A DNA stretch of 64,000 bases from Clostridia bacterium (GTDB lineage: Bacteria; Bacillota; Clostridia; RGIG7378), in the NCBI GenBank assembly GCA_017559445.1, contig JAFYSJ010000026.1:1908-65907 (forward strand). The letters run 5' to 3'. The stretch's first letter is position 1; each line of letters starts with the position of its first letter. The notes below the pieces were generated by a model. That model had not been told where the DNA came from, made no database searches, and saw only the letters and a program-made list of their open reading frames with translations. Both the position numbers and the translations under genes were made by a program. This document shows positions 17,932 to 42,283 of the stretch, one piece after another.

Positions 17932-19302
17932 TTATAGCTGATCTGCTAGAACTTTTCGCTTTTCCCATTTTCCACTTAAGAAGTAGATACAGCTTGGGAT
18001 GGCAGTTCCGTATGTGGCCAATGCGTATCCAAGAACGAATCCGTAGAAGCCCCAACCAAGCGCGATACCAAATAGCCAGCTAAGTCCAATTCTAAGCACT
18101 ACGCCGTCCAACATCGCAAGGACTAATCCTAAGTAGGCGTTACCAATACCCTGTATAAAGGCGAATGTGCCTCTCATAATGGTAAGGGCCGGCATCATCC
18201 ACAGGATAGCCTGAATAAATGTGTGTGACATCTCGTGAACCAGTGGGTCGTCAGAGAACATCATAAAGAGTTGCTTGCCCATTGTGAGGTAGATTGTCAT
18301 GCAGATAACTGTCAATGCGCCTGCGAAAATCCAGGAGCAGTAAACAGTTTTCTTAGCTCTGTCATTCTTGCCAGCGGCAATATTCTGGGCAACGATTGGC
18401 ATAGCAGCAAATTGGATGCCCTGAGAAATTTTGCTAAAAATATCGTCGATACGCACGCCAACTCCAAATGTGGCAGATGCAACAACGCTAATGCTGTTAA
18501 CAAGGGAGTTAACGAACATCATGGAAATGTTAATGCATCCAGCCTGAATAGCCATGGGCAATCCCTGATTAAAAATAAGGCGAACGTAGTTGAACTTAGG
18601 AATAAAGCTGGACAACTTAAAGTCAAAGCCAAATGCTTCTCTGTGCTTGAACAAGTAGTACAAGGAGAACAGGAAGGAAACACCCTGACCGATGATTGTA
18701 GCCCATGCAGCGCCTGCAACCTTCATATCCAAGAATCCTGTGAAGATAATGTCCAATACAAGGTTAACAACAGTTGCAATACCAATAAAGAGAAGAGGTC
18801 TCTTGGAATCTCCCATTCCACGAAGAACAGCAGAAACCATGTTGTATCCAGCAGTGAAGAAAAGTCCGCATCCGCAGATGATCAAATAATCCATGGACAT
18901 GGCATAGGACTCTGTAGGCATGTTCATTACATCCAAAATCCATGTTCTAGCGAAAAGGATTACGACGGAAAGTACAATTCCCATTGCAGAGATTAGGGAG
19001 AAAAGTGTTCCGATGATCTGGTTAAGCTCCTTGCGTTTTTGGGAACCAATAGCATGGGCAACGAGAATCTGTCCTGCGTTGGAAAAGCCAAGGCACATCA
19101 TGGTGGCAAAGTTTAGAATAAGACTGCTCTGGTAAACGGCAGAAAGTCCTGCTGTACCAACGAATTTGCCAACGATAACCATATCGATGGTGCTGTATAG
19201 AACCTGAAGTGCGTTTGCTGCCATGAATGGAATAGACATGGTTATGAGGAAACGCCATATGCTACCTTGTGTAAAATCTTTGGATAAGTGTTTTTTGGAC
19301 AT
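17932..19302 (-). CDS. MATE family efflux transporter
   Basis: DMVIVGKFVG, LRGMGDSKRPL, NLVLD, GAAWAT; about 12 TM segments. Confidence 0.92.
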   Translation of the reverse strand: MSKKHLSKDFTQGSIWRFLITMSIPFMAANALQVLYSTIDMVIVGKFVGTAGLSAVYQSSLILNFATMMCLGFSNAGQILVAHAIGSQKRKELNQIIGTLFSLISAMGIVLSVVILFARTWILDVMNMPTESYAMSMDYLIICGCGLFFTAGYNMVSAVLRGMGDSKRPLLFIGIATVVNLVLDIIFTGFLDMKVAGAAWATIIGQGVSFLFSLYYLFKHREAFGFDFKLSSFIPKFNYVRLIFNQGLPMAIQAGCINISMMFVNSLVNSISVVASATFGVGVRIDDIFSKISQGIQFAAMPIVAQNIAAGKNDRAKKTVYCSWIFAGALTVICMTIYLTMGKQLFMMFSDDPLVHEMSHTFIQAILWMMPALTIMRGTFAFIQGIGNAYLGLVLAMLDGVVLRIGLSWLFGIALGWGFYGFVLGYALATYGTAIPSCIYFLSGKWEKRKVLADQL

Positions 19303-19319
19303 TTATTATACCTCTGGGT

Positions 19320-19550
19320 TAGTGAGCCGCTGCGCTAGTAGCCGCCTTCGGCTAGTGAGCCGCTACGCTAGTAGTCGCACCGTTGGTGCTAGTGAGCCGC
19401 TACGCTAGTAGTCGCTGCGCTAGTGAACCGCAACTGCGTTGCTAGTAGGCCGCCTTCGGCTAGTGAGCCACGAGCAAAGCTCGTTAGTGAGCCGCTGCGC
19501 TAGTAGTCGCTGCGCTAGTGAGCCGCTACGCTAGTAGTCGCTGCGCTAGT
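19320..19550 (+). repeat. Modular linker/mini-hairpin array 1 (13 modules)
   Basis: TAGTGA(G/A)CC or TAGTAG(G)(T/C)C linkers alternate with hairpins GCTGCGC, GCTACGC, GCCTTCGGC, GCACCGTTGGTGC, GCAACTGCGTTGC, ACGAGCAAAGCTCGT. Confidence 0.95.
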
Positions 19551-19646
19551 TAATGCGCGTGCGCGCAGTATTATATTGCAGATTTTACGAAAAATCCAAC
19601 ATTTTGACATGTTTTTATGGCATTTCGTCGCGATATTTAATAAAAC

Positions 19647-20732
19647 CTATTTAGACGACAAAACTTCGATGTGTGACAAGGGAGCCTGCATAATATTCCA
19701 AGAAAGAGCCGCTCCAGTGCAACCATTTTTGCCAATTACATCGAGACATTCCCTCACATACTGGGGAGAAGTCTTAACTAGCTCTGGATGGTGGTTGATC
19801 TCTATGCCAGCGTATACGTGGCAGGGAAGATTGCTAAGTGCCTTAAGCTGGTCATCTAAGAAATTTGCATCCATTTGGATGGCTTCGTAGCCCTGTGCCT
19901 TTGGAGCGGAACTTTTAAGCAAGTAGTACTCATAACCTAATCCGGCGGGGGCAAGGGTTCTTCGGTACAGCATGGGCTTAACAAAATCTGCATGCTGGGC
20001 AAGGAGGTTATAGTCCTGTCCCACGAATCTGGACATAAGGGGCGCAAATGTGTCTAAACCAACTTCTAGACCAAGATCCTTAAAATGCTTGCAAAGTTCG
20101 CCTACACCCTGGTCAATAATCTTGCATTTTGAATTAAAGAAATTTTCGGTGATTTCGTGGGCAAAGGAGCCGTTTGGCAACTTATCAAAGAAGTTATCTT
20201 CTAATGTTTCGTATGCCTTTCTCACATCATCTAAGGAAACGCCATTTTCAAAATGCTTTTCTGCGCATCTTGGGCAACCACAGCTTAACACGCCAGAAAC
20301 ACCTCCACCAAAGGAGTGGGTTCTGATTCTGTCCATAAAGACTCCATCAAAACCAGAGGTGGAGAAGTATTTGTGGTACATCTCTTTAACTAAATCAATG
20401 TTGTCTGGAGAGGAAGGGCAGCAGAAATCGAATGTTTCGCCGCTTTGCACTAGGGAAGGAGCGATATCTTTTCCCCAAAGGGCAACAGCCTTGTGGATTG
20501 AACCAAATTCTGCAGTATCTGAGAAAACAGGGAGCCAAAGGACCATTTTGGTGCCGTACTTTGACAAGAACTCCTTGAGTCTAAGGTACATATCCTCATT
20601 GGGGTACCAGCCCAGCATGAGCTTGTCCACGGAAATGAGCTCAAAAACTTGGCTTAGTCTGGCGATTATATCTTGTGCCTCGTACTCCTGGTGGAAACGA
20701 CTGCCTGTAGATAATTGCACTGTGTACTGCAT
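19647..20732 (-). CDS. Hypothetical protein, possible glycoside hydrolase-like TIM barrel with Cys cluster
   Basis: FCCPSSP, FDGVFMDRIR, SCGCPRC, GQDY...DFVKPMLY motifs recall GHL-type barrels; GGAGG RBS. Confidence 0.5.
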   Translation of the reverse strand: MQYTVQLSTGSRFHQEYEAQDIIARLSQVFELISVDKLMLGWYPNEDMYLRLKEFLSKYGTKMVLWLPVFSDTAEFGSIHKAVALWGKDIAPSLVQSGETFDFCCPSSPDNIDLVKEMYHKYFSTSGFDGVFMDRIRTHSFGGGVSGVLSCGCPRCAEKHFENGVSLDDVRKAYETLEDNFFDKLPNGSFAHEITENFFNSKCKIIDQGVGELCKHFKDLGLEVGLDTFAPLMSRFVGQDYNLLAQHADFVKPMLYRRTLAPAGLGYEYYLLKSSAPKAQGYEAIQMDANFLDDQLKALSNLPCHVYAGIEINHHPELVKTSPQYVRECLDVIGKNGCTGAALSWNIMQAPLSHIEVLSSK

Positions 20733-20881
20733 ATATCCTCCCGAAGAATAGGTGATACGAACATGGTAAAACTATAGCGATGGGATGTCAAATGTTAAGT
20801 GGAACGCCTAAGGCGGGTGAGTTGATTAAAAGTTTATATGTAATATAATGAAAAAAAGACCGGCGTTCGGGGGAACAAGCT

Positions 20882-22057
20882 ATGTATAGAAATTTCATTT
20901 GCTACAGAGGCGGATCTTCTGCAGGAATACATTATGCTAACGATATATATGTACACTTAAATCAAATCAAGGATAAAGTTGGGGTTACATATTATTCTCC
21001 AGAAAAGGAGTTTGCAGGAGAAGTTCGAAATTTTTTGTTAGATCCAGCAAAATATCTTGGAAATGTAGAAAACTTCATTATGTTATTAACAAGAGATTTC
21101 TTTGATGGATTCATTGTGGATGGCAGGCCCAATCCAGAGTCGGTTACGAGAATAGAGATAGATGAAATTCTAAAAAATGATAACGTAAAAATTATACCTG
21201 TTGTATTTCCAGATTTCTCATGGGCAGACACCACCAAGGGTAAATCAAATCAAGACATATTGACAGAGCTTTGGGGTGAGGAAGCCATGAATAGAATTGT
21301 TGGTTCGCCTCCAATTCCCTATGTTTTTCAATATAGAAATCAAGTAACGCAGCTGGTAGCAGATGAATTGACAGCTAAGAGTAGTAGCAAAAGGGTTGTA
21401 GTATTCGATTTTGATGGCACATTAACTAAACCAAGAGTAGATGCGAATACATGGGAGTTGTTATGGGAGAGCCTTGGATATGATGTATCGGAGTGTGAAA
21501 AGTATCACAGGCAGTTTAGTAGAGGCGAAATTTCTCATGAGGAATGGTGTGAAATAACAGAAAAGAAATTTAAGGAAGCAGGCTGTAGCAAGAAGAATCT
21601 TAAGGAAACAGCATTTAAAGCAGAACTTGTGGATGACGTGTTTGAAGTCATTAGGGAGCTTAGGTCAAAGGGAATATTATTGTATATATTGTCCGGTTCC
21701 ATTAAGCAGTACATAGAACTTGTATTGGGCAAGGAGATGAGCTCGTGTTTTGTGGAGATAAAGGCCAACAGGATGACCTTTGATGATCAGGGAATGTTAG
21801 ATGGAATTATTGGTACGCCCTATGATTTTGAGGGGAAGGCCAAATTTGTAAATAAAATAATTGGCGAAAAACAGGTGTCTCCCAAGGATATCATCTACGT
21901 TGGCAATTCCTTTAATGATGAGTTCGTATATACTACTGGAGTTGAAACCTTGTGCATCAATCCAAGGGGCACAGATTACTATAACAACAAGGTTTGGCAT
22001 AATTATATACGAAGATTAACAAGCTTGAAGGAAATTCTGCCTTATATTTATTCATAA
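20882..22057 (+). CDS. TIR-like domain fused to HAD-family phosphatase
   Basis: N-terminal FICYR (betaA), ESVTRIEI (alphaC Glu), IIPV; C-terminal FDFDGTLT, LSGS, GKAK, VGNSFND HAD motifs; own promoter (TTGATT 20822, TATAAT 20844). Confidence 0.7.
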   Translation: MYRNFICYRGGSSAGIHYANDIYVHLNQIKDKVGVTYYSPEKEFAGEVRNFLLDPAKYLGNVENFIMLLTRDFFDGFIVDGRPNPESVTRIEIDEILKNDNVKIIPVVFPDFSWADTTKGKSNQDILTELWGEEAMNRIVGSPPIPYVFQYRNQVTQLVADELTAKSSSKRVVVFDFDGTLTKPRVDANTWELLWESLGYDVSECEKYHRQFSRGEISHEEWCEITEKKFKEAGCSKKNLKETAFKAELVDDVFEVIRELRSKGILLYILSGSIKQYIELVLGKEMSSCFVEIKANRMTFDDQGMLDGIIGTPYDFEGKAKFVNKIIGEKQVSPKDIIYVGNSFNDEFVYTTGVETLCINPRGTDYYNNKVWHNYIRRLTSLKEILPYIYS

Positions 22058-22059
22058 AG

Positions 22060-22086
22060 AAGGGTACCCTATGATGGGTGCCTTTT
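22060..22086 (+). terminator. Intrinsic terminator
   Basis: AAGGGTACCC-TATGAT-GGGTGCCTTTT. Confidence 0.65.
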
Positions 22087-22136
22087 ATGTTTTGTACAGA
22101 ATGATAAAAGAATAACTTAAACTGGCGCAACAGCGT

Positions 22137-22443
22137 GGTTCACTAGCGCAGCGGCCACTAGCACCAACGGTGCGGCTCACTAACGAGCTTTGCTCGTGGT
22201 TCACTAGCGTAGCGGCCACTAGCAACGCAGTTGCGGCTCACTAACGAGCTTTGCTCGTGGTTCACTAGCCGAAGGCGGCCTACTAGCGCGATAGCGCGGC
22301 CACTAGCACCAACGGTGCGGTTCACTAGGCGCAGCCGGTTCACTAGCGTAGCGACCACTAGCAACGCAGTTGCGGCTCACTAACGAGCTTTGCTCGTGGT
22401 TCACTAGCGCAGCGGCCACTAGCACCAACGGTGCGGCTCACTA
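22137..22443 (-). repeat. Modular linker/mini-hairpin array 2 (15 modules, reverse orientation)
   Basis: GG(C/T)TCACTA and GGCCACTA linkers (reverse complement of TAGTG..) with the same hairpin set as array 1 plus GGCGCAGCC and GCGCGATAGCGC. Confidence 0.95.
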
Positions 22444-22516
22444 AATTAACTCCTTAACTAAGTCGAACTAATTTGATATAATCCCTTACATATAAACAGA
22501 AAGGAACAAAATACAC

Positions 22517-24586
22517 ATGAGTGACATGAACAAAAAGTATGAGGCTCTGTTTACACCCTGGAAGGTTGGCAATGTGGAGATTAAGAACCGCATTGTTATG
22601 TGCCCCATGGGAGGAACATCCCTTTTTGGTTGGTTTGAGCTTGGTGGCTGTCATTTTGACAAGGAGGCTGCTAAGCTGTTTTTGGAGAGAGCTAACAACA
22701 ACGTTGGCCTTATTATTCCTGGTATCGCTCCACTTAGAGACACATTCTGGGGCAAGTGGCTTTGGCAGAACCCTAAGATGTTCGATGAGCTCAAGGAGTT
22801 CATGGACGAGATTCACAAGACAGGAGCTAAGCTCTTTGTTCAGCTGACAGCTGGTATGGGTCGTTCTTGGGCTATTACAGAGCTTGTTGCACCACTTCAC
22901 AAGAACAAGGTTACACGTGCACTTCTCAAGCCTATTTTGGATACAAACCATGAGCTTGCTTGTCCAAGTCCACAGCCTTCTCGTTGGGCACATGACATTA
23001 TCTGTCCAGAGATGACAGTAGAGCAGATTCACGAGATTATCGAGGCATTTGCTAAGACAGCTAAGCTTTGTATGGATGCTGGTGTAGATGGCGTTGAGGT
23101 TCACGCTGTTCACGAGGGCTATTTGCTTGACCAGTTTGCCATCGAATTCTTTAACAAGAGACAGGACGAGTATGGCGGATCCTTCGAAAACCGCTACCGC
23201 TTTGCAGCAGAGGTTGTAAAGGCTATTAAGGCAGAGTGTGGTCAGGATTATCCCGTTTCCCTTAGATATTCCGTAGAGTCCAAGATGAAGGGCTTCTGCG
23301 AGGGCGCAATGCCAGGTGAGGACTACGTAGAAGTAGGCCGTAACATGGAGGAGTCCGAAAAGGCAGCTAAGTACTTGCAGGATGCAGGTTACGATATGCT
23401 CAACGCAGATAACGGAACATATGACTCCTGGTACTGGGCACATCCACCGATGTATATGCCAGAGAACTGCAACTTGGACGATGTTGCACACATTAAGAAG
23501 TTCGTAGATATTCCTGTAGTTTGTGCAGGTAGAATGGACGCAGAGGTAGGCGCTCAGGCAGTTGCTGAGGGCAGAATCGACGGCGTTGGTGTTGCTCGTC
23601 AGTTCTTGGTAGATCCAGAGTGGATTACTAAGCTTATCGAGGACAGAATCGAAGATATTAAGCCATGTATTTGCTGCCACAGCGGATGCTTTAACTTCTC
23701 TTCCTCCAGAGGACATGCTAATACTCAGGATTTGACAGATACAATGGGTCTTGCACGTTGTGCTCTTAACCCCAAGACAATGCAGTCCAAGAAGTACAAC
23801 CTTAAGCCTGCTAAGAAGGTTAAGAAGGTTGCTATCGTTGGCGGTGGTATTGGTGGTATGGAGGCAGCACTTGTTTGTGCACAGAGAGGCCATACAGTTA
23901 CACTTTACGAAAAGTCTGGTGAGCTTGGTGGCGTTTTCGTAGCAGCTGCAGCACCTTCCTTCAAGGAAAAGGATAGAGCCCTTATTGCATGGTATATCCG
24001 TCAGCTTTCCTTGTACCCAATCGAGGTAAAACTTAATACAGAAGTTACAGATATTAACGCTTTGGATGCAGATGAAATCATCATCGCAACAGGCGCAAAG
24101 GCAAGGAGAATTCCAGTTAAGGGCGCAGAGACAGCTATTGAGGCTGTAGATTACTTGCTTGGAAAGGCTCCAGTAGGAGATAAGGTTACAATTATCGGCG
24201 GTGGTCTTACAGGTTGTGAGATTGCTTATGACTTGTTCTTGCAGGGCAAGCATCCTTCCATCGTAGAAATGCAGGATGACCTTATTACAACTCCCGGTAT
24301 TTGTTTGGCTAACACAAGCTACTTGAGAGATTGCTTTAAGACAAACAATGTTCCAGTTCACCTTGAGACAGCTTTGGTTGAAATTTGCGACGGTTACGTA
24401 ACAGTTAGAAACAAGGATGGAGAGACATTCCAGATTCCTTCCGACAACGTAATCCTTTCCGTTGGTTACAACCCAGCACCTTTGGCACCTAAGGCTAAGA
24501 ACGTTCACGTAATCGGCGACGCTAACAAGGTTGGCAACCTCAGAACAGTTATTTGGGGCGCTTGGGACGTTTGCATGAAGATCTAG
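22517..24586 (+). CDS. NADH:flavin oxidoreductase (OYE barrel, 4Fe-4S, FAD/NAD domain), 2-enoate reductase-like
   Basis: KNRIVMCPM, GVEVHAVHEGYLLDQF, DEYGGSFENR, CICCHSGC, GGGIGGMEAA, GGGLTGCE. Confidence 0.9.
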   Translation: MSDMNKKYEALFTPWKVGNVEIKNRIVMCPMGGTSLFGWFELGGCHFDKEAAKLFLERANNNVGLIIPGIAPLRDTFWGKWLWQNPKMFDELKEFMDEIHKTGAKLFVQLTAGMGRSWAITELVAPLHKNKVTRALLKPILDTNHELACPSPQPSRWAHDIICPEMTVEQIHEIIEAFAKTAKLCMDAGVDGVEVHAVHEGYLLDQFAIEFFNKRQDEYGGSFENRYRFAAEVVKAIKAECGQDYPVSLRYSVESKMKGFCEGAMPGEDYVEVGRNMEESEKAAKYLQDAGYDMLNADNGTYDSWYWAHPPMYMPENCNLDDVAHIKKFVDIPVVCAGRMDAEVGAQAVAEGRIDGVGVARQFLVDPEWITKLIEDRIEDIKPCICCHSGCFNFSSSRGHANTQDLTDTMGLARCALNPKTMQSKKYNLKPAKKVKKVAIVGGGIGGMEAALVCAQRGHTVTLYEKSGELGGVFVAAAAPSFKEKDRALIAWYIRQLSLYPIEVKLNTEVTDINALDADEIIIATGAKARRIPVKGAETAIEAVDYLLGKAPVGDKVTIIGGGLTGCEIAYDLFLQGKHPSIVEMQDDLITTPGICLANTSYLRDCFKTNNVPVHLETALVEICDGYVTVRNKDGETFQIPSDNVILSVGYNPAPLAPKAKNVHVIGDANKVGNLRTVIWGAWDVCMKI

Positions 24587-38689: not shown

Positions 38690-39424
38690 ATGACCAAGGC
38701 TGTTCTAATTACAGGTGCATCTAGGGGAATAGGCGCTGCCATAGCAGAGACTTTTGCTAAGGCTGGATATGCTGTAGGTATCAACTACAATAGCAGTCAG
38801 GAGAGAGCAGAGCAGTTGGCAAGCAGGCTGACTGAGCAGTATGGTGTAAAGGCAACTATTCACAAGTGCAACGTGGCAAATCCTAAGGAAGTAGAGGAAA
38901 TGGTTCAGGACTTTGTTAAGAGTCATGGAAATATTTCCACATTGGTCTGCAATGCAGGTGTTGCACACATGGGACTTTTGTCAGATATGACAGATGGTGA
39001 ATGGGATAAGGTCTTGGGTACAAATCTTAGCGGAACTTTCTATGCTTGCAGACAGGTTATTCCGTACATGGTACGCCAGCAGGAAGGTAGCATAGTAACA
39101 GTGTCCTCCATGTGGGGACAGGAGGGAGCATCCTGTGAGGCAGCATATTCTGCAACAAAGGCAGGTATTATTGGTCTCACTAAGGCTTTGGCCAAGGAGT
39201 TGGGTCCCTCGAACATTAGAGTTAATTGCGTAGCTCCAGGCATGATCGCCACAGAGATGAATAGCTGTCTCTCTGAAGAAGATGTGCAGGCCATTGCAGA
39301 TGAGACACCACTTTGTCGCGTTGGCCAGCCTGAGGAGGTTGCAAAGGTAGTGTTGTTCTTGGCATCCCAGGAGGCTAGCTTTGTGACAGGCCAGGTTGTG
39401 GGCGTTAATGGAGGAATGTTTTAG
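38690..39424 (+). CDS. Short-chain dehydrogenase/reductase (FabG/YmfI-like)
   Basis: TGASRGIG, NAG, SSMWG...YSATK; its TAG stop is the first linker of array 3. Confidence 0.85.
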   Translation: MTKAVLITGASRGIGAAIAETFAKAGYAVGINYNSSQERAEQLASRLTEQYGVKATIHKCNVANPKEVEEMVQDFVKSHGNISTLVCNAGVAHMGLLSDMTDGEWDKVLGTNLSGTFYACRQVIPYMVRQQEGSIVTVSSMWGQEGASCEAAYSATKAGIIGLTKALAKELGPSNIRVNCVAPGMIATEMNSCLSEEDVQAIADETPLCRVGQPEEVAKVVLFLASQEASFVTGQVVGVNGGMF

Positions 39425-39522
39425 TGATCCGCACCGTTGGTGCTAGTGAACCACGAGCAAAGCTCGTTAGTGAGCCGCTGCGCTAGTAGGTCGCACCGTT
39501 GGTGCTAGTAGCCGCCTTCGGC
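39422..39522 (+). repeat. Modular linker/mini-hairpin array 3 (5 modules)
   Basis: Same linkers and hairpins as array 1; runs directly into TAGTGTT heptamers. Confidence 0.92.
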
Positions 39523-39730
39523 TAGTGTTTAGTGTTTGGTGTTGAGTGTTTAGTGAATGTCCCTTTGTTCCTATGGTCTTTTATATATGAACTTACTTCA
39601 TTCGTTAAACACTAATCACTAATAACTAAACACTGCAAACAAAGTTTGTGAACCGTGCCTCCCGCGCTTCGGAAGTAGCGGGCGACTTTTGATTACTTTT
39701 GGTCGTTCAAAAGTAATGAATAAACACTAA
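39523..39730 (+). repeat. ~210-bp structured repeat element, copy 1
   Basis: Heptamer (TAGTGTT)-bounded element with nested hairpins; aligns along its length with the reverse complement of 41542-41760. Confidence 0.9.
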
Positions 39731-41541: not shown

Positions 41542-41760
41542 TTAGTGTATATTCATTACTTTGGAGCGACCCAAAGTAATCAAAGGTCGCCCGCTACTTC
41601 CGAATGCGCGGGAGGCACAGTTCGCAAAGCACAGCTTTGCAGTGGTTAGTGTTTAACGGATGAAGTAAGTTCCTATATAAAAGACCATAGGAACATAGGG
41701 ACATTCACTAAACACTGAACACCCAACACCCAACACTCAACACTCAACACCAAACACTAA
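41542..41760 (-). repeat. ~210-bp structured repeat element, copy 2 (inverted)
   Basis: Reverse complement of 39523-39730 with compensatory stem changes and a longer AACAC(T/C)N heptamer run. Confidence 0.9.
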
Positions 41761-41776: not shown

Positions 41777-42283
41777 ATGAAGGTTTTAGTTGTAGTAGAT
41801 ATGCAAAAGGATTTCATAGATGGGGCTCTAGGTAGTCCAGAGGCCCAGGCCATTGTACCCTATGTTAAAGATACAATTGCTTCTTTTGATGGTGTAGTTC
41901 TCTTTACTAGAGACACCCATTTTGATGGATATATGGACACTCAGGAGGGCCGCAACCTTCCAGTACCCCATTGTATCAAGGGGACAGACGGATGGCAGAT
42001 TCACCCAGAATTGGATGCTTTACGCAAGACAGATGCCATAGACAAGGTAACCTTTGGTTCCAAGGATTTGATTAAGGTTTTGGAAGGCATTAAGGATATA
42101 GAGAACATCACATTCCTTGGCCTTTGCACAGATATTTGCGTTATTTCCAACGTAATGGTGACAAAAGCTTTCTTCCCAGAAATTCCATTAATTGTGGATA
42201 GCAAGGGATGCGCAGGTGTTTCAGTAGAGTCACACAATAATGCCTTGGAGGCCATGAAGATGTGCCAGGTAAAGGTTGTTTAA
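41777..42283 (+). CDS. Isochorismatase/nicotinamidase (PncA-like) cysteine hydrolase
   Basis: VDMQKDF, DTH, PHC...GW, K, GLCTDICV. Confidence 0.85.
   Translation: MKVLVVVDMQKDFIDGALGSPEAQAIVPYVKDTIASFDGVVLFTRDTHFDGYMDTQEGRNLPVPHCIKGTDGWQIHPELDALRKTDAIDKVTFGSKDLIKVLEGIKDIENITFLGLCTDICVISNVMVTKAFFPEIPLIVDSKGCAGVSVESHNNALEAMKMCQVKVV

Follow-up and report, generated by a model that had tools for sequence, protein, structure and literature searches.

Dispersed hairpin arrays of Gut-1 design in a Clostridia genome look built for folding as single-stranded DNA

The sequence between positions 22137 and 22443 of the window (the whole 64,000-nucleotide stretch of Clostridia DNA analysed here) belongs to a family of 90 arrays in which short hairpin modules alternate with a constant linker ending in CTA. 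What appears to be new, as judged from the sequences, is that the design of these arrays is that of the Rfam family Gut-1 (RF01706), present here as a species-restricted variant with its own linker. We lean towards the view that this locus (array 2) is one copy of a dispersed, non-coding DNA repeat, a branch of the Gut-1 design, whose units would fold as single-stranded DNA (ssDNA) and whose arrays would grow unit by unit; the repeat may be selfish or structural in nature. The family is an overgrown, species-restricted branch of that design. In every unit a short perfect hairpin precedes the constant tag G-G/A-Y-Y-(Y)-A-C-T-A, which would be single-stranded; the hairpins would be tuned for folding as ssDNA on the strand that reads CACTA (the CACTA strand), and the C-GNA-G and C-GNNA-G loops would stabilise even 2-bp stems in DNA, not in RNA.

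Anatomy and surroundings of array 2

The features of the window discussed below are the following.

17932–19302: MatE gene, adjoining array 1
19320–19566, minus strand: array 1, kin of array 2, whose CACTA strand is the minus strand
20882–22057: HAD-family gene, before the terminator-like hairpin and array 2
22059–22086, plus strand: terminator-like hairpin and T run, 3' of the HAD-family gene and 5' of array 2 (consensus scan only)
22125–22136, plus strand: leading module with no linker 5' of it; a 4-bp stem that includes one G.T pair, AACA in the loop
22137–22443, plus strand: array 2, made up of 16 linkers (pattern G[GA]YY(Y)ACTA) and, between them, 15 perfect hairpin modules
22454–22482, plus strand: promoter-like site TTAACT, 17 bases, TATAAT with TG (consensus scan only)
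22517–24586: FMN/FAD oxidoreductase gene, the next gene beyond array 2
39422–39514, minus strand: third array, small, 5 linkers
39520–39700, minus strand: composite repeat, copy 1, running straight into the third array
41640–41760, plus strand: composite repeat, copy 2, core and CACTAAA-type heptamer run

An earlier note on this DNA had counted 15 modules and 16 linkers in 22137–22443, and splitting the sequence gives both numbers; the minus-strand module order that it read (C A E D A' G C F B E D A' E C A) is reproduced exactly, and its additional modules G and F and short linker TAGTGGCC are all found in array 2. The CACTA strand of array 2 is the plus strand, on which the linkers are GGTTCACTA and GGCTCACTA, the short forms GGCCACTA and GACCACTA, and a single GGCCTACTA; the forms within 22137–22443 can be written as GGYYCACTA or GGCCACTA. 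The window has 19 copies of GGYYCACTA where 1.58 would be expected, a count reached in none of 100 shuffles. Read on the CACTA strand, 9 of the 15 loops of array 2 are GCA, GTA, GAA or GATA closed by a C-G pair, and the other six are AAC (three) and TTT (three). The hairpin at 22125–22136 is a 16th, directly 5' of the first linker of array 2.

Because the genome is a short-read metagenome assembly in which several arrays lie at contig ends, the internal order of an array could be partly mis-assembled. Public sequencing-run contigs match 21177–22171 and 22271–22346 with zero differences, in runs that may be the source sample; none of the runs listed as carrying this DNA was an RNA run. Logan contigs break within arrays, and depth there is the sum over all arrays of the genome, so most contig joints are not assignable to array 2; only contigs anchored in unique flanks were used for comparison at the level of the locus. 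No family reached its gathering score in an Rfam scan of the window, and a permissive scan of 19200–22600 gave just chance-level matches (hveRNA, STnc230, MIR531).

Array 2 is flanked by terminator-like and promoter-like sites (consensus scan), the latter directly 3' of the array and ahead of the FMN/FAD oxidoreductase gene. Array 1 lies between a promoter-like site (consensus scan) and the start of MatE, and is probably transcribed as part of the MatE 5' leader; in both arrays the CACTA strand is in the sense of the flanking genes. The last linker of the third array ends in a CTA that is complementary to the TAG with which the ORF at 38690–39424 stops. Copy 1 of the composite repeat consists of a TAGTG-type heptamer run, a core of ~50 bases and a CACTAAA-type heptamer run, and copy 2, in which no hairpin modules were found, ends at the ribosome-binding site of the ORF at 41777–42283. 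Such effects on adjacent genes (5' leaders, stop codons, spacers) would be by-products of the repeat.

The array family in the genome

Counting as an array any run of at least three linkers, this 1.68 Mb genome has 90 arrays with 788 linkers and 698 modules (16,544 bp, or 1% of all its DNA and 8% of the non-ORF part), the longest with up to 21 units. The modules are 7–15 bases long, 542 of the 698 are perfect hairpins from end to end, and they are heavily reused; for example, one module has 81 copies among the 90 loci. CTA is the invariant 3' end of all linkers, modules pair freely with linker variants on either side, and the tag bounds the arrays at both ends. A leading module opens 74 of 84 arrays, 45 of these 74 being preceded by ACTA without GG. 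When clusters of at least three linkers were listed with no strand constraint nearly all were single-strand, and four larger clusters (on C37, C25, C17 and C3) switch strand once and are mirrored array pairs.

A protein-coding role, which the earlier note had doubted, is excluded because all linkers hold stop codons and in 87 of the 90 arrays any overlap with a called ORF is of at most 30 bases (an overlap of >30 bases was seen in 3/90). In the CACTA frame the flanking ORFs are (-,-) in 33 cases, (+,+) in 17, convergent (+,-) in 17 and divergent (-,+) in 11. CRISPR arrays have repeats of at least 23 bases and unique spacers of similar length; this assignment was rejected, the constant part here being just 8–9 bases and the variable parts palindromes from a small recurring vocabulary at 90 loci. 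Chi-site and restriction-site readings of the linker were dropped as coincidences.

Loops follow a one-strand rule

On the CACTA strand of the perfect-hairpin modules genome-wide, 325 of 542 loops are GNA (GCA 138, GAA 124, GTA 62, GGA 1) and 4 are TNC (TGC 2, TTC 1, TAC 1), so the strand bias that the earlier note saw relative to the linker in array 2 is extreme and not random. The rule spans at least six unrelated perfect stems, and GNA loops also sit on three imperfect stems with tandem G.A pairs (the module list was read by eye). Part of this asymmetry could have been inherited from a few founder units. Gut-1-type arrays from 13 other genomes have unrelated stems and other linkers, yet keep the rule (17 GNA and no TNC among 28 perfect hairpins at 15 loci, a small count).

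These loops bear on the idea that the arrays are duplex binding sites, in which a dimeric nucleoid or regulatory protein reads the palindromes or the linker and hairpins never form. Perfect palindromes with a 3–4-base centre are typical of dimer sites, the linker is constant, and the arrays are intergenic and near promoters. However, the stems are of at least ten unrelated kinds, from 2 to 6 bp, and cannot all be one protein's site, and neither the one-strand G-N-A rule across lineages nor the conservation of pairing under changing stem sequence is explained; we give this idea a very slim chance.

Gut-1 arrays in this and related genomes

The Gut-1 consensus has three C-G-closed UNC hairpins and four copies of the linker GUGAAAU, and its opposite strand reads ATTTCAC with GNA loops. 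RF01706 gave no match over 19200–22600 (arrays 1 and 2) at E up to 10; its best match in the genome, at 42.5 bits against a gathering score of 50 bits, is a separate GTGAAAT-linked array (G000:C40:36623-36693). The sister species G002 has Gut-1-scoring arrays with the linkers AACTTCACT and ATATCAT, which read AGTGAAGTT and (A/G)TGATAT on the modelled strand. Adjacent pairs of Gut-1 matches are + then - from left to right in 23 of 23 cases, i.e. mirrored, a layout that is an observation on the matches found here and lies outside the Rfam definition.

Folding as DNA or as RNA

Eight listed 7-base module types account for 148 copies, of which 131 are GCGCAGC, GCGTAGC or GCGAAGC, all with 2-bp stems. 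As DNA these three sequences form mini-hairpins that melt at 71, 70 and 76°C, respectively, and GCGATAGC, GCGACAGC and GCGTTAGC melt at 71, 72 and 69.5°C, whereas the RNA counterpart r(GCGAAAGC) melts at 39°C (PMC13037366). The same work found GNA to be the sole mini-hairpin-forming loop among all 64 triloops, and GATA, GACA and GTTA tetraloops are published DNA mini-hairpin variants (PMC13037366). The tetraloops in the modules (GATA, GTTA, GTCA and GACA) are neither GNRA nor UNCG loops. A nearest-neighbour DNA model gives the 7-base modules 0 kcal/mol on both strands and favours the CACTA strand of the longer ones by just 0.3–0.8 kcal/mol, so our folding claim draws on published melting of the same sequences and not on that of these arrays. 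In whole-array DNA folds (z = -1.25 for the plus and -3.01 for the minus strand) cross-pairing between repeated modules dominates. Beyond the arrays GCGNAGC is seen 441 times, against about 411 expected.

The arrays might instead be an RNA-level element that acts, when transcribed, as a Gut-1-type small RNA, mRNA stabiliser, terminator or leader. The design fits Gut-1, which Weinberg et al. (2010, PMC2864571) rate in their table 1 as certainly an RNA; array 1 is probably a 5' leader and arrays 1 and 2 have sense CACTA strands, as described above; and the stems of 5–6 bp would fold as RNA too. On the other hand, one-strand RNA fits poorly because the arrays run both ways relative to genes, as the earlier note's doubts about an RNA role would have it, and array 2 sits between terminator-like and promoter-like sites. 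Neither the 2-bp stems of the 131 modules, stable in DNA at 70–76°C, nor the tetraloops are what RNA would be expected to favour, the mirrored Gut-1 pairs would need two convergent RNA genes per element, and Gut-1 itself can have as many as 26 scored copies in one genome, many of which lie at contig ends. We regard an RNA role as unlikely. The DNA-level reading is favoured because of the DNA-stable 7-base modules, the occurrence of both gene orientations and the position of array 2, and on this analysis the arrays look built for folding as ssDNA, not RNA.

Distribution, turnover and growth

A three-linker pattern is found in one of 401 genomes of the class and was not found in three species of the same genus. 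The syntenic site of array 1 in the sister species G002 is without an array. In run contigs of a strain with about 2% flank divergence the sequence within each of the two arrays takes another course. In 80 metagenome loci with relatives of the 689-aa oxidoreductase (67–89% identity), which include no conspecific contig, neither CACTA arrays nor comparable tandem arrays were found upstream. Of 50 pattern matches in viral contigs, not one had as many as two perfect hairpin modules. A GTDB-wide search with our own genome left out gave multi-linker pattern matches among at least 103 stretches; those inspected were rejected as ordinary tandem repeats containing GGCTCACTA.

Identical modules are rarely neighbours, with 13 such cases against 49.0 +/- 6.0 in within-array shuffles (13 or fewer in 0 of 2000) and 26.6 +/- 4.8 in global shuffles (5 of 2000). 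Since each array is a mosaic drawn from a small set of modules, hardly ever with identical neighbours and with CACTA at both ends, we infer that they grow and turn over per unit at the CACTA junction, by copy-and-insert or by template switching on transient ssDNA; simple slippage would not be the mode of growth. The arrays begin at a (TT)CACTA that was already in place, and CACTA closes them.

Candidate enzymes and priming

The earlier note had also proposed an ssDNA-recognising enzyme, and the search for one leaves this unsupported. There were no matches to the Y1 HUH family (PF01797) at E up to 0.01 in this 96.4%-complete assembly (as a positive control, PF01797 matched in 6 of 14 reference genomes), and the best TnpB (PF07282) domain score was 19.4 bits with a cut-off of 26.3. 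No multi-copy transposase-like ORFs were found; the multi-copy ORFs are surface or other proteins, and three that were checked are a no-family protein, a GH18 hydrolase and a desulfoferrodoxin. The activity behind growth would thus not be a Y1 HUH transposase found in this assembly, and IS200/IS605-derived miniature elements were rejected with neither TnpA nor TnpB over cut-off in the genome. Among 151 genomes of the class Y1_Tnp is less frequent in the Gut-1-positive (14/30) than in the negative ones (71/121), and the Gut-1-rich genomes G082, G109, G119, G136 and G138 are without it.

These results weigh on a REP/BIME-like repeat in which a Y1 HUH enzyme (RAYT or IS200/IS605 TnpA) would read the hairpin foot and cut ssDNA at CACTA. 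TnpA-REP cleaves ssDNA at GTAG-tagged REPs, and IS200/IS605 elements cleave and insert 3' of a fixed pentanucleotide. The conserved short tag adjoining the hairpin, the intergenic, high-copy and lineage-specific occurrence and the tag at both array ends, which would fit IS200/IS605-style insertion, all suit such a mechanism. But the enzyme search points the other way, the units are co-oriented within an array, unlike BIMEs and REPINs, and the modules are perfect palindromes of 7–15 bases, not imperfect ones of 20–40; we find it very unlikely.

The unit could also mimic a single-strand initiation site (hairpin plus pyrimidine-rich spacer ending in CTA) and serve as a priming or SSB-excluding signal, the arrays acting on exposed ssDNA in replication, repair or DNA uptake. 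Mini-hairpins occur at the phage G4 priming site and RSF1010 ssiA, and DNA with two of them binds SSB poorly (PMC13037366). A preference for 5'-d(CTA) is known for the primases of G. stearothermophilus, S. aureus and B. anthracis, and that of C. difficile is stimulated on d(CTA) by its helicase (PMC5204125). CTA, at which Firmicute DnaG primases start, is the invariant 3' end of the linker, and the mirrored Gut-1 arrays, GNA strands outward, are arranged as two ssi sites would be, one on either strand. Against this, CTA is very common and, via CTAG, is also on the other strand at most junctions, chromosome replication has no obvious need of 90 arrays with as many as 21 units, and sister species manage without arrays. 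The replichore bias, moreover, is weak (56 versus 34 arrays) and opposite in direction to the CACTA strand as lagging-strand template, which it is not in 56 of the 90 (p = 0.026, uncorrected). The prospects of this reading seem to us very poor, both for the unit as such a signal and for arrays acting on exposed ssDNA.

A broader version would take Gut-1-type arrays in general as HUH-less, ssDNA-acting elements whose units are miniature single-strand initiation sites and not RNA genes, which we consider decidedly unlikely. The two arms, with active strands outward, would resemble ssiA/ssiB of RSF1010; the element would bring the host's primase or replisome to ssDNA, either to have itself copied or to seed restart, and unit-wise growth at CACTA would follow as a side effect of priming and template switching there.

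To return to the favoured reading of a DNA repeat folding on one strand, the earlier note had suggested selection on the ssDNA structure of a particular strand. The loop asymmetry and the DNA-type loops agree with this, whereas the missing enzyme, the weak replichore bias and the stem mismatches do not: the 26 module copies with one mismatch (8 G.T/T.G, 9 A.C/C.A, 9 other; nearly all singletons) show no strand asymmetry of G.T versus A.C (8 versus 9 copies).

Implications

If the favoured reading is true, Gut-1, a 16-year-old orphan Rfam family listed as "human gut only", would gain a genomic identity as a multi-copy mirrored DNA repeat of gut Clostridia, and its conserved loops would be the C-GNA-G cap, specific to DNA, on the complement of the strand that was modelled as RNA. 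The present genome illustrates the extent to which such a repeat can spread (about 90 loci, with identical neighbours strictly avoided), where sister species have just a few short copies. It would also offer a natural system in which to ask what reads mini-hairpin DNA in cells, a question that has so far been linked with a small number of phage and plasmid origins. On the practical side, short-read assemblies break at the arrays, which could be of use as fast strain markers. A limited literature search, which cannot prove that none is in print, found no published description of this hairpin-array design.

Comparison with known systems

REP/BIME elements are high-copy, intergenic, lineage-specific palindromic units with a conserved tag by the hairpin, and are thought to act as ssDNA hairpins; a REP is defined as an imperfect palindrome of about 20–40 bases with a GTAG or CGTC tag. 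The arrays share with them the high copy number, intergenic position, tag by the hairpin, clustering and lineage specificity. They differ in that this genome is without a RAYT or Y1_Tnp gene, the units are all co-oriented within an array where those of BIMEs and REPINs alternate, the modules are shorter, mostly perfect and built on many stems, and the tag is CACTA.

Mobile GC-rich palindromic clusters of yeast mitochondrial DNA were reportedly the subject of work by Weiller et al. in 1989. The GC42 clusters among such elements, as described by Wu and Hao (2015, PMC4478555), resemble our arrays as short GC-rich hairpin elements in AT-rich intergenic DNA with a short duplicated target, merging and shuffling into tandem arrays, no known enzyme and variation between strains. 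They belong to another kingdom and genome type, have units of about 42 bases, the target AG and no constant linker, and an RNA-mediated route is proposed for them there.

Mini-hairpin DNA, d(GCGNAGC) or d(GCGNNAGC), is matched more closely: the 7-base modules are identical to d(GCGCAGC), d(GCGTAGC) and d(GCGAAGC), the longer modules share the C-GNA-G or C-GNNA-G cap, and both are strand-specific. The natural sites, namely the phage G4 priming site, RSF1010 ssiA and the phage N4 early promoters (Kimoto and Hirao 2026, PMC13037366), are lone hairpins at phage or plasmid origins or promoters with no constant linker described, whereas here they are chromosomal, joined by a constant linker and set at 90 loci in rows that reach 21 units.

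The closest relation is to Gut-1. Both consist of rows of short hairpins (15, with 16 linkers, in array 2) with varying, compensated stems and a constant short linker, both have 3-base C-G-closed loops (UNC on the modelled strand being GNA on the other), both are multi-copy and intergenic in gut Clostridia, and a linker core is common to Gut-1 (ATTTCAC), the sister species G002 (AACTTCACT) and this genome (GGTTCACTA). The linker here is longer (8–9 bases) and CTA-terminal; on the same strand GUGAAAU of Gut-1 compares with TAGTGA(A/G)CC or TAGTGGCC, the common part being just GTGA(A). Gut-1 has 3–4 units per arm in a mirrored pair and up to 26 scored copies per genome, whereas the arrays here have up to 21 co-oriented units at about 90 loci; array 2 is single-armed, and the genome has only the four larger mirrored pairs. 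Finally, Gut-1 has been described as a non-coding RNA, whereas the evidence assembled here points to a DNA repeat.

Hairpin arrays in the window

Array 2 is made up of 16 linkers that alternate strictly with 15 hairpin modules; its module order, extra modules and short linker, as listed in the earlier note, all match when re-read on the sequence. We call the strand on which the linker ends in CACTA the CACTA strand. The motif GGYYCACTA is present 19 times in the window (1.58 expected), and array 2 contains larger internal repeats with periods of 61 and 139.

Hairpin arrays and associated features, in window coordinates
19320-19566, CACTA strand minus: array 1
22059-22086: terminator-like hairpin upstream of array 2 (consensus scan only)
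22125-22136, plus: leading hairpin with one G.T pair, preceding the first linker of array 2
22137-22443, plus: array 2, with linker variants GGTTCACTA/GGCTCACTA, GGCCACTA/GACCACTA and one GGCCTACTA
22454-22482: promoter-like site after array 2 (consensus scan only)
39422-39514, CACTA strand minus: a further array
39520-39700, minus: composite repeat copy, heptamer runs plus core
41640-41760, plus: composite repeat copy, core plus CACTAAA-type heptamer run

By these consensus scans only, array 2 is flanked by a terminator-like hairpin and a promoter-like site, and array 1 has a promoter-like site on one side and the MatE start on the other. The 361-amino acid ORF between the two arrays (19647-20732, minus) is 53–58% identical to counterparts in each of the other three species of the genus, and a Pfam search at E up to 0.001 assigned it to no family.

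The array family in the host genome

The host assembly (1.68 Mb in 40 contigs, 42% G+C, 96% complete) carries 90 arrays, defined as at least three co-oriented linkers, which together contain 788 linkers and 698 modules, the modules being of 170 different kinds. Sequencing runs that contain this stretch carry the labels animal gut metagenome and bovine gut metagenome. In all, the arrays span 16,544 bp, or 1% of the genome and 8% of the DNA left outside crude ORF calls; an overlap of more than 30 bases with a called ORF occurs in 3 of the 90. Because CTAG contains TAG whichever strand is read, no linker is free of stop codons. Of the 698 modules, 542 are perfect hairpins over their whole length, with a stem of 2 bp or more and a loop of up to 5; many of the remainder are two units fused via a degenerate linker.

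The composite repeat has many more copies in this genome. Its order is a TAGTG-type heptamer run (TAGTGxx), a core of about 50 bases in which lie a TATAAAA box and a perfect 12-base palindrome, and a CACTAAA-type heptamer run (CACTAxx) that stops either at the ribosome-binding site of a gene or in a hairpin array. Its heptamer arms can run directly into hairpin arrays. The repeat may include a promoter and a leader rich in CA, and the CACTA linker looks as though it was seeded by this repeat.

A strand-specific loop rule

Among the 542 perfect hairpins, the loops on the CACTA strand are GCA (138), GAA (124), GTA (62), TTT (56), AAC (45), GATA (12) and GGA (1), and the complementary loops TGC, TTC and TAC occur there 2, 1 and 1 times, respectively. 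GNA caps are borne by unrelated stems (GC, GCC, GGC, GCAAC, GGACC and AC) and, in our own reading of the module list, by three imperfect modules containing tandem G.A pairs. In a given stem the middle loop base is free (GC-GCA-GC 81 copies, GTA 39, GAA 11); first-base variants of the GC stem have only 2–5 copies, and no third-base variants were seen in the module list of this genome. Inheritance from founder units could produce part of this bias inside a single genome, and independent lineages were therefore compared. At 15 loci in 13 other genomes, Gut-1-type arrays with other linkers and stems have 28 perfect hairpins among 40 modules, and on the strand whose linker reads ...TTCAC... or ATATCA... 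these comprise 17 GNA and no TNC loops. The strand-specific rule thus belongs to the design and not to this genome's history, and the bias relative to the linker that the earlier note saw in array 2 holds genome-wide and beyond.

DNA or RNA

According to the review by Kimoto and Hirao (PMC13037366), GNA alone among all 64 loops of GCNNNGC yields the mini-hairpin. The Tm of d(GCGNAGC) is given there as 76, 73, 71 and 70 C for N = A, G, C and T, those of GCGATAGC, GCGACAGC and GCGTTAGC as 71, 72 and 69.5 C, and that of the RNA counterpart r(GCGAAAGC) as 39 C. The eight 7-base module types in the module list total 148 copies, 131 of which are exactly GCGCAGC, GCGTAGC or GCGAAGC. With a pyrimidine in third position, the array tetraloops GATA, GACA, GTTA and GTCA fall outside the GNRA class of RNA loops. 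A nearest-neighbour model gives the 7-base module 0 kcal/mol on both strands and favours the CACTA strand of longer modules by only 0.3–0.8 kcal/mol; the published mini-hairpin stability is invisible to such a model. In the CACTA-strand frame, flanking ORFs are (-,-) in 33 cases, (+,+) in 17, convergent in 17 and divergent in 11, and this mixed orientation counts against a one-strand RNA.

Two observations count against a simple single-stranded DNA story. In only 34 of the 90 arrays does the CACTA strand coincide with the G-rich (leading-sequence) strand, and single stem mismatches are split between G.T/T.G (8 copies) and A.C/C.A (9 copies). Selection on single-stranded DNA recognised by an enzyme, as first proposed, stands in part: one strand, DNA-type loops, and neither a coding nor a one-strand RNA role are upheld, and the enzyme is unproven. 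The genome has no match to PF01797 (Y1 HUH), nothing over cut-off for the TnpB domain PF07282, and no transposase-like multi-copy ORFs. By our own count over 151 genomes, 14 of the 30 Gut-1-positive genomes and 71 of the 121 negative ones have Y1_Tnp. A RAYT-type partner therefore has no support, although metagenome bins often lack repeats and insertion sequences.

Growth and turnover of the arrays

A perfect module stands ahead of the first full linker in 74 of 84 arrays (6 at contig ends were dropped), and in 45 of these 74 it is preceded by ACTA, mostly as TTCACTA, and the GG found in internal linkers is absent. The sequence ...ACTA closes every array. Where the 3' neighbour is convergent on the array (53 arrays, by crude ORF calls), its TAG stop is the complement of the array's last CTA in 12, with three shared bases; the window's example is ORF 38690-39424 (bases 39422-39424). 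Such sharing suggests either insertion at a pre-existing TAG(TG) or selection that keeps it.

Every module type pairs with many linker variants on either side, and module-linker mutual information is 0.62 and 0.70 bits on the two sides (0.34 in shuffles). Identical adjacent modules number 13 over all 90 arrays, as compared with 49.0 +/- 6.0 in within-array shuffles (0 of 2000 with 13 or fewer) and 26.6 +/- 4.8 in genome-wide module shuffles (5 of 2000). Since slippage produces identical neighbours, simple slippage is not the main mode of growth; either identical neighbours are lost fast or units are brought in from elsewhere.

A search for the three-linker pattern in 41 relatives and in 401 class genomes gave one genome each time, the host itself, and did not find it in the three other species of the genus. 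In the sister species G002, an ordinary spacer of about 135 bases occupies the position syntenic to array 1, and the oxidoreductase orthologue (91% identity) has a purely local 23-base minisatellite upstream. This minisatellite has five copies (about 170-290 of L117, a stretch of G002 contig C37), its unit was found nowhere else in the four genomes of the genus, and the G002 assembly breaks within the start of the orthologue gene. In public runs, the unique flanks of a strain with about 2% flank divergence run into different content at arrays 1 and 2, with joints 19319>19461 and 22135>22317; the remaining joints are not assignable to this locus.

Relationship to Gut-1

A match below the cut-off of Gut-1 (Rfam RF01706, filed as an RNA motif; 42.5 versus 50 bits) lies at C40:36623-36693 of the host genome (224-294 of the fetched stretch L212). 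It is a short array with linker GTGAAAT that adjoins a copy of the composite repeat, and the alignment shows that Gut-1 consists of three hairpins, linked by GUGAAAU, whose UUC/UGC loops are closed by C-G. Its opposite strand is ATTTCAC plus GNA loops, a design equal to that of the GGTTCAC-TA arrays. At E up to 0.001, Gut-1 matches 30 of 151 sampled class genomes (20 over cut-off), with up to 26 scored matches per genome, often less than 300 bases from a contig end; G002 has 4, of which 3 are over cut-off, with linkers AGTGAAGTT/AACTTCACT and (A/G)TGATAT/ATATCAT. Among the adjacent pairs listed, the plus match lies left of the minus match in 23 of 23, so the elements are mirrored with GNA strands running outward, and what Rfam files as an "RNA", here multi-copy, thus resembles a single arm of a mirrored DNA element. 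The same layout is seen in four larger array pairs of the host genome and in the composite repeat with its heptamer-run arms. We accordingly interpret the CACTA arrays as the Gut-1 design with a variant linker, in which the hairpin-bearing arm is overgrown.

Most likely, the arrays are a DNA repeat of the Gut-1 kind, either selfish or structural. Of the alternatives compatible with the data, the boldest is a priming signal: each unit would consist of a mini-hairpin and a spacer with CTA at its end, and CTA is the trinucleotide at which Firmicute primases prefer to start (PMC5204125). As selfish or structural repeats, the arrays would have a CACTA strand that folds when single-stranded, and would turn over unit by unit at the CACTA junction. 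The arrays themselves give no score with the Gut-1 model; the known motif, with its C-G-closed hairpin loops and constant linker GUGAAAU, has the same design.
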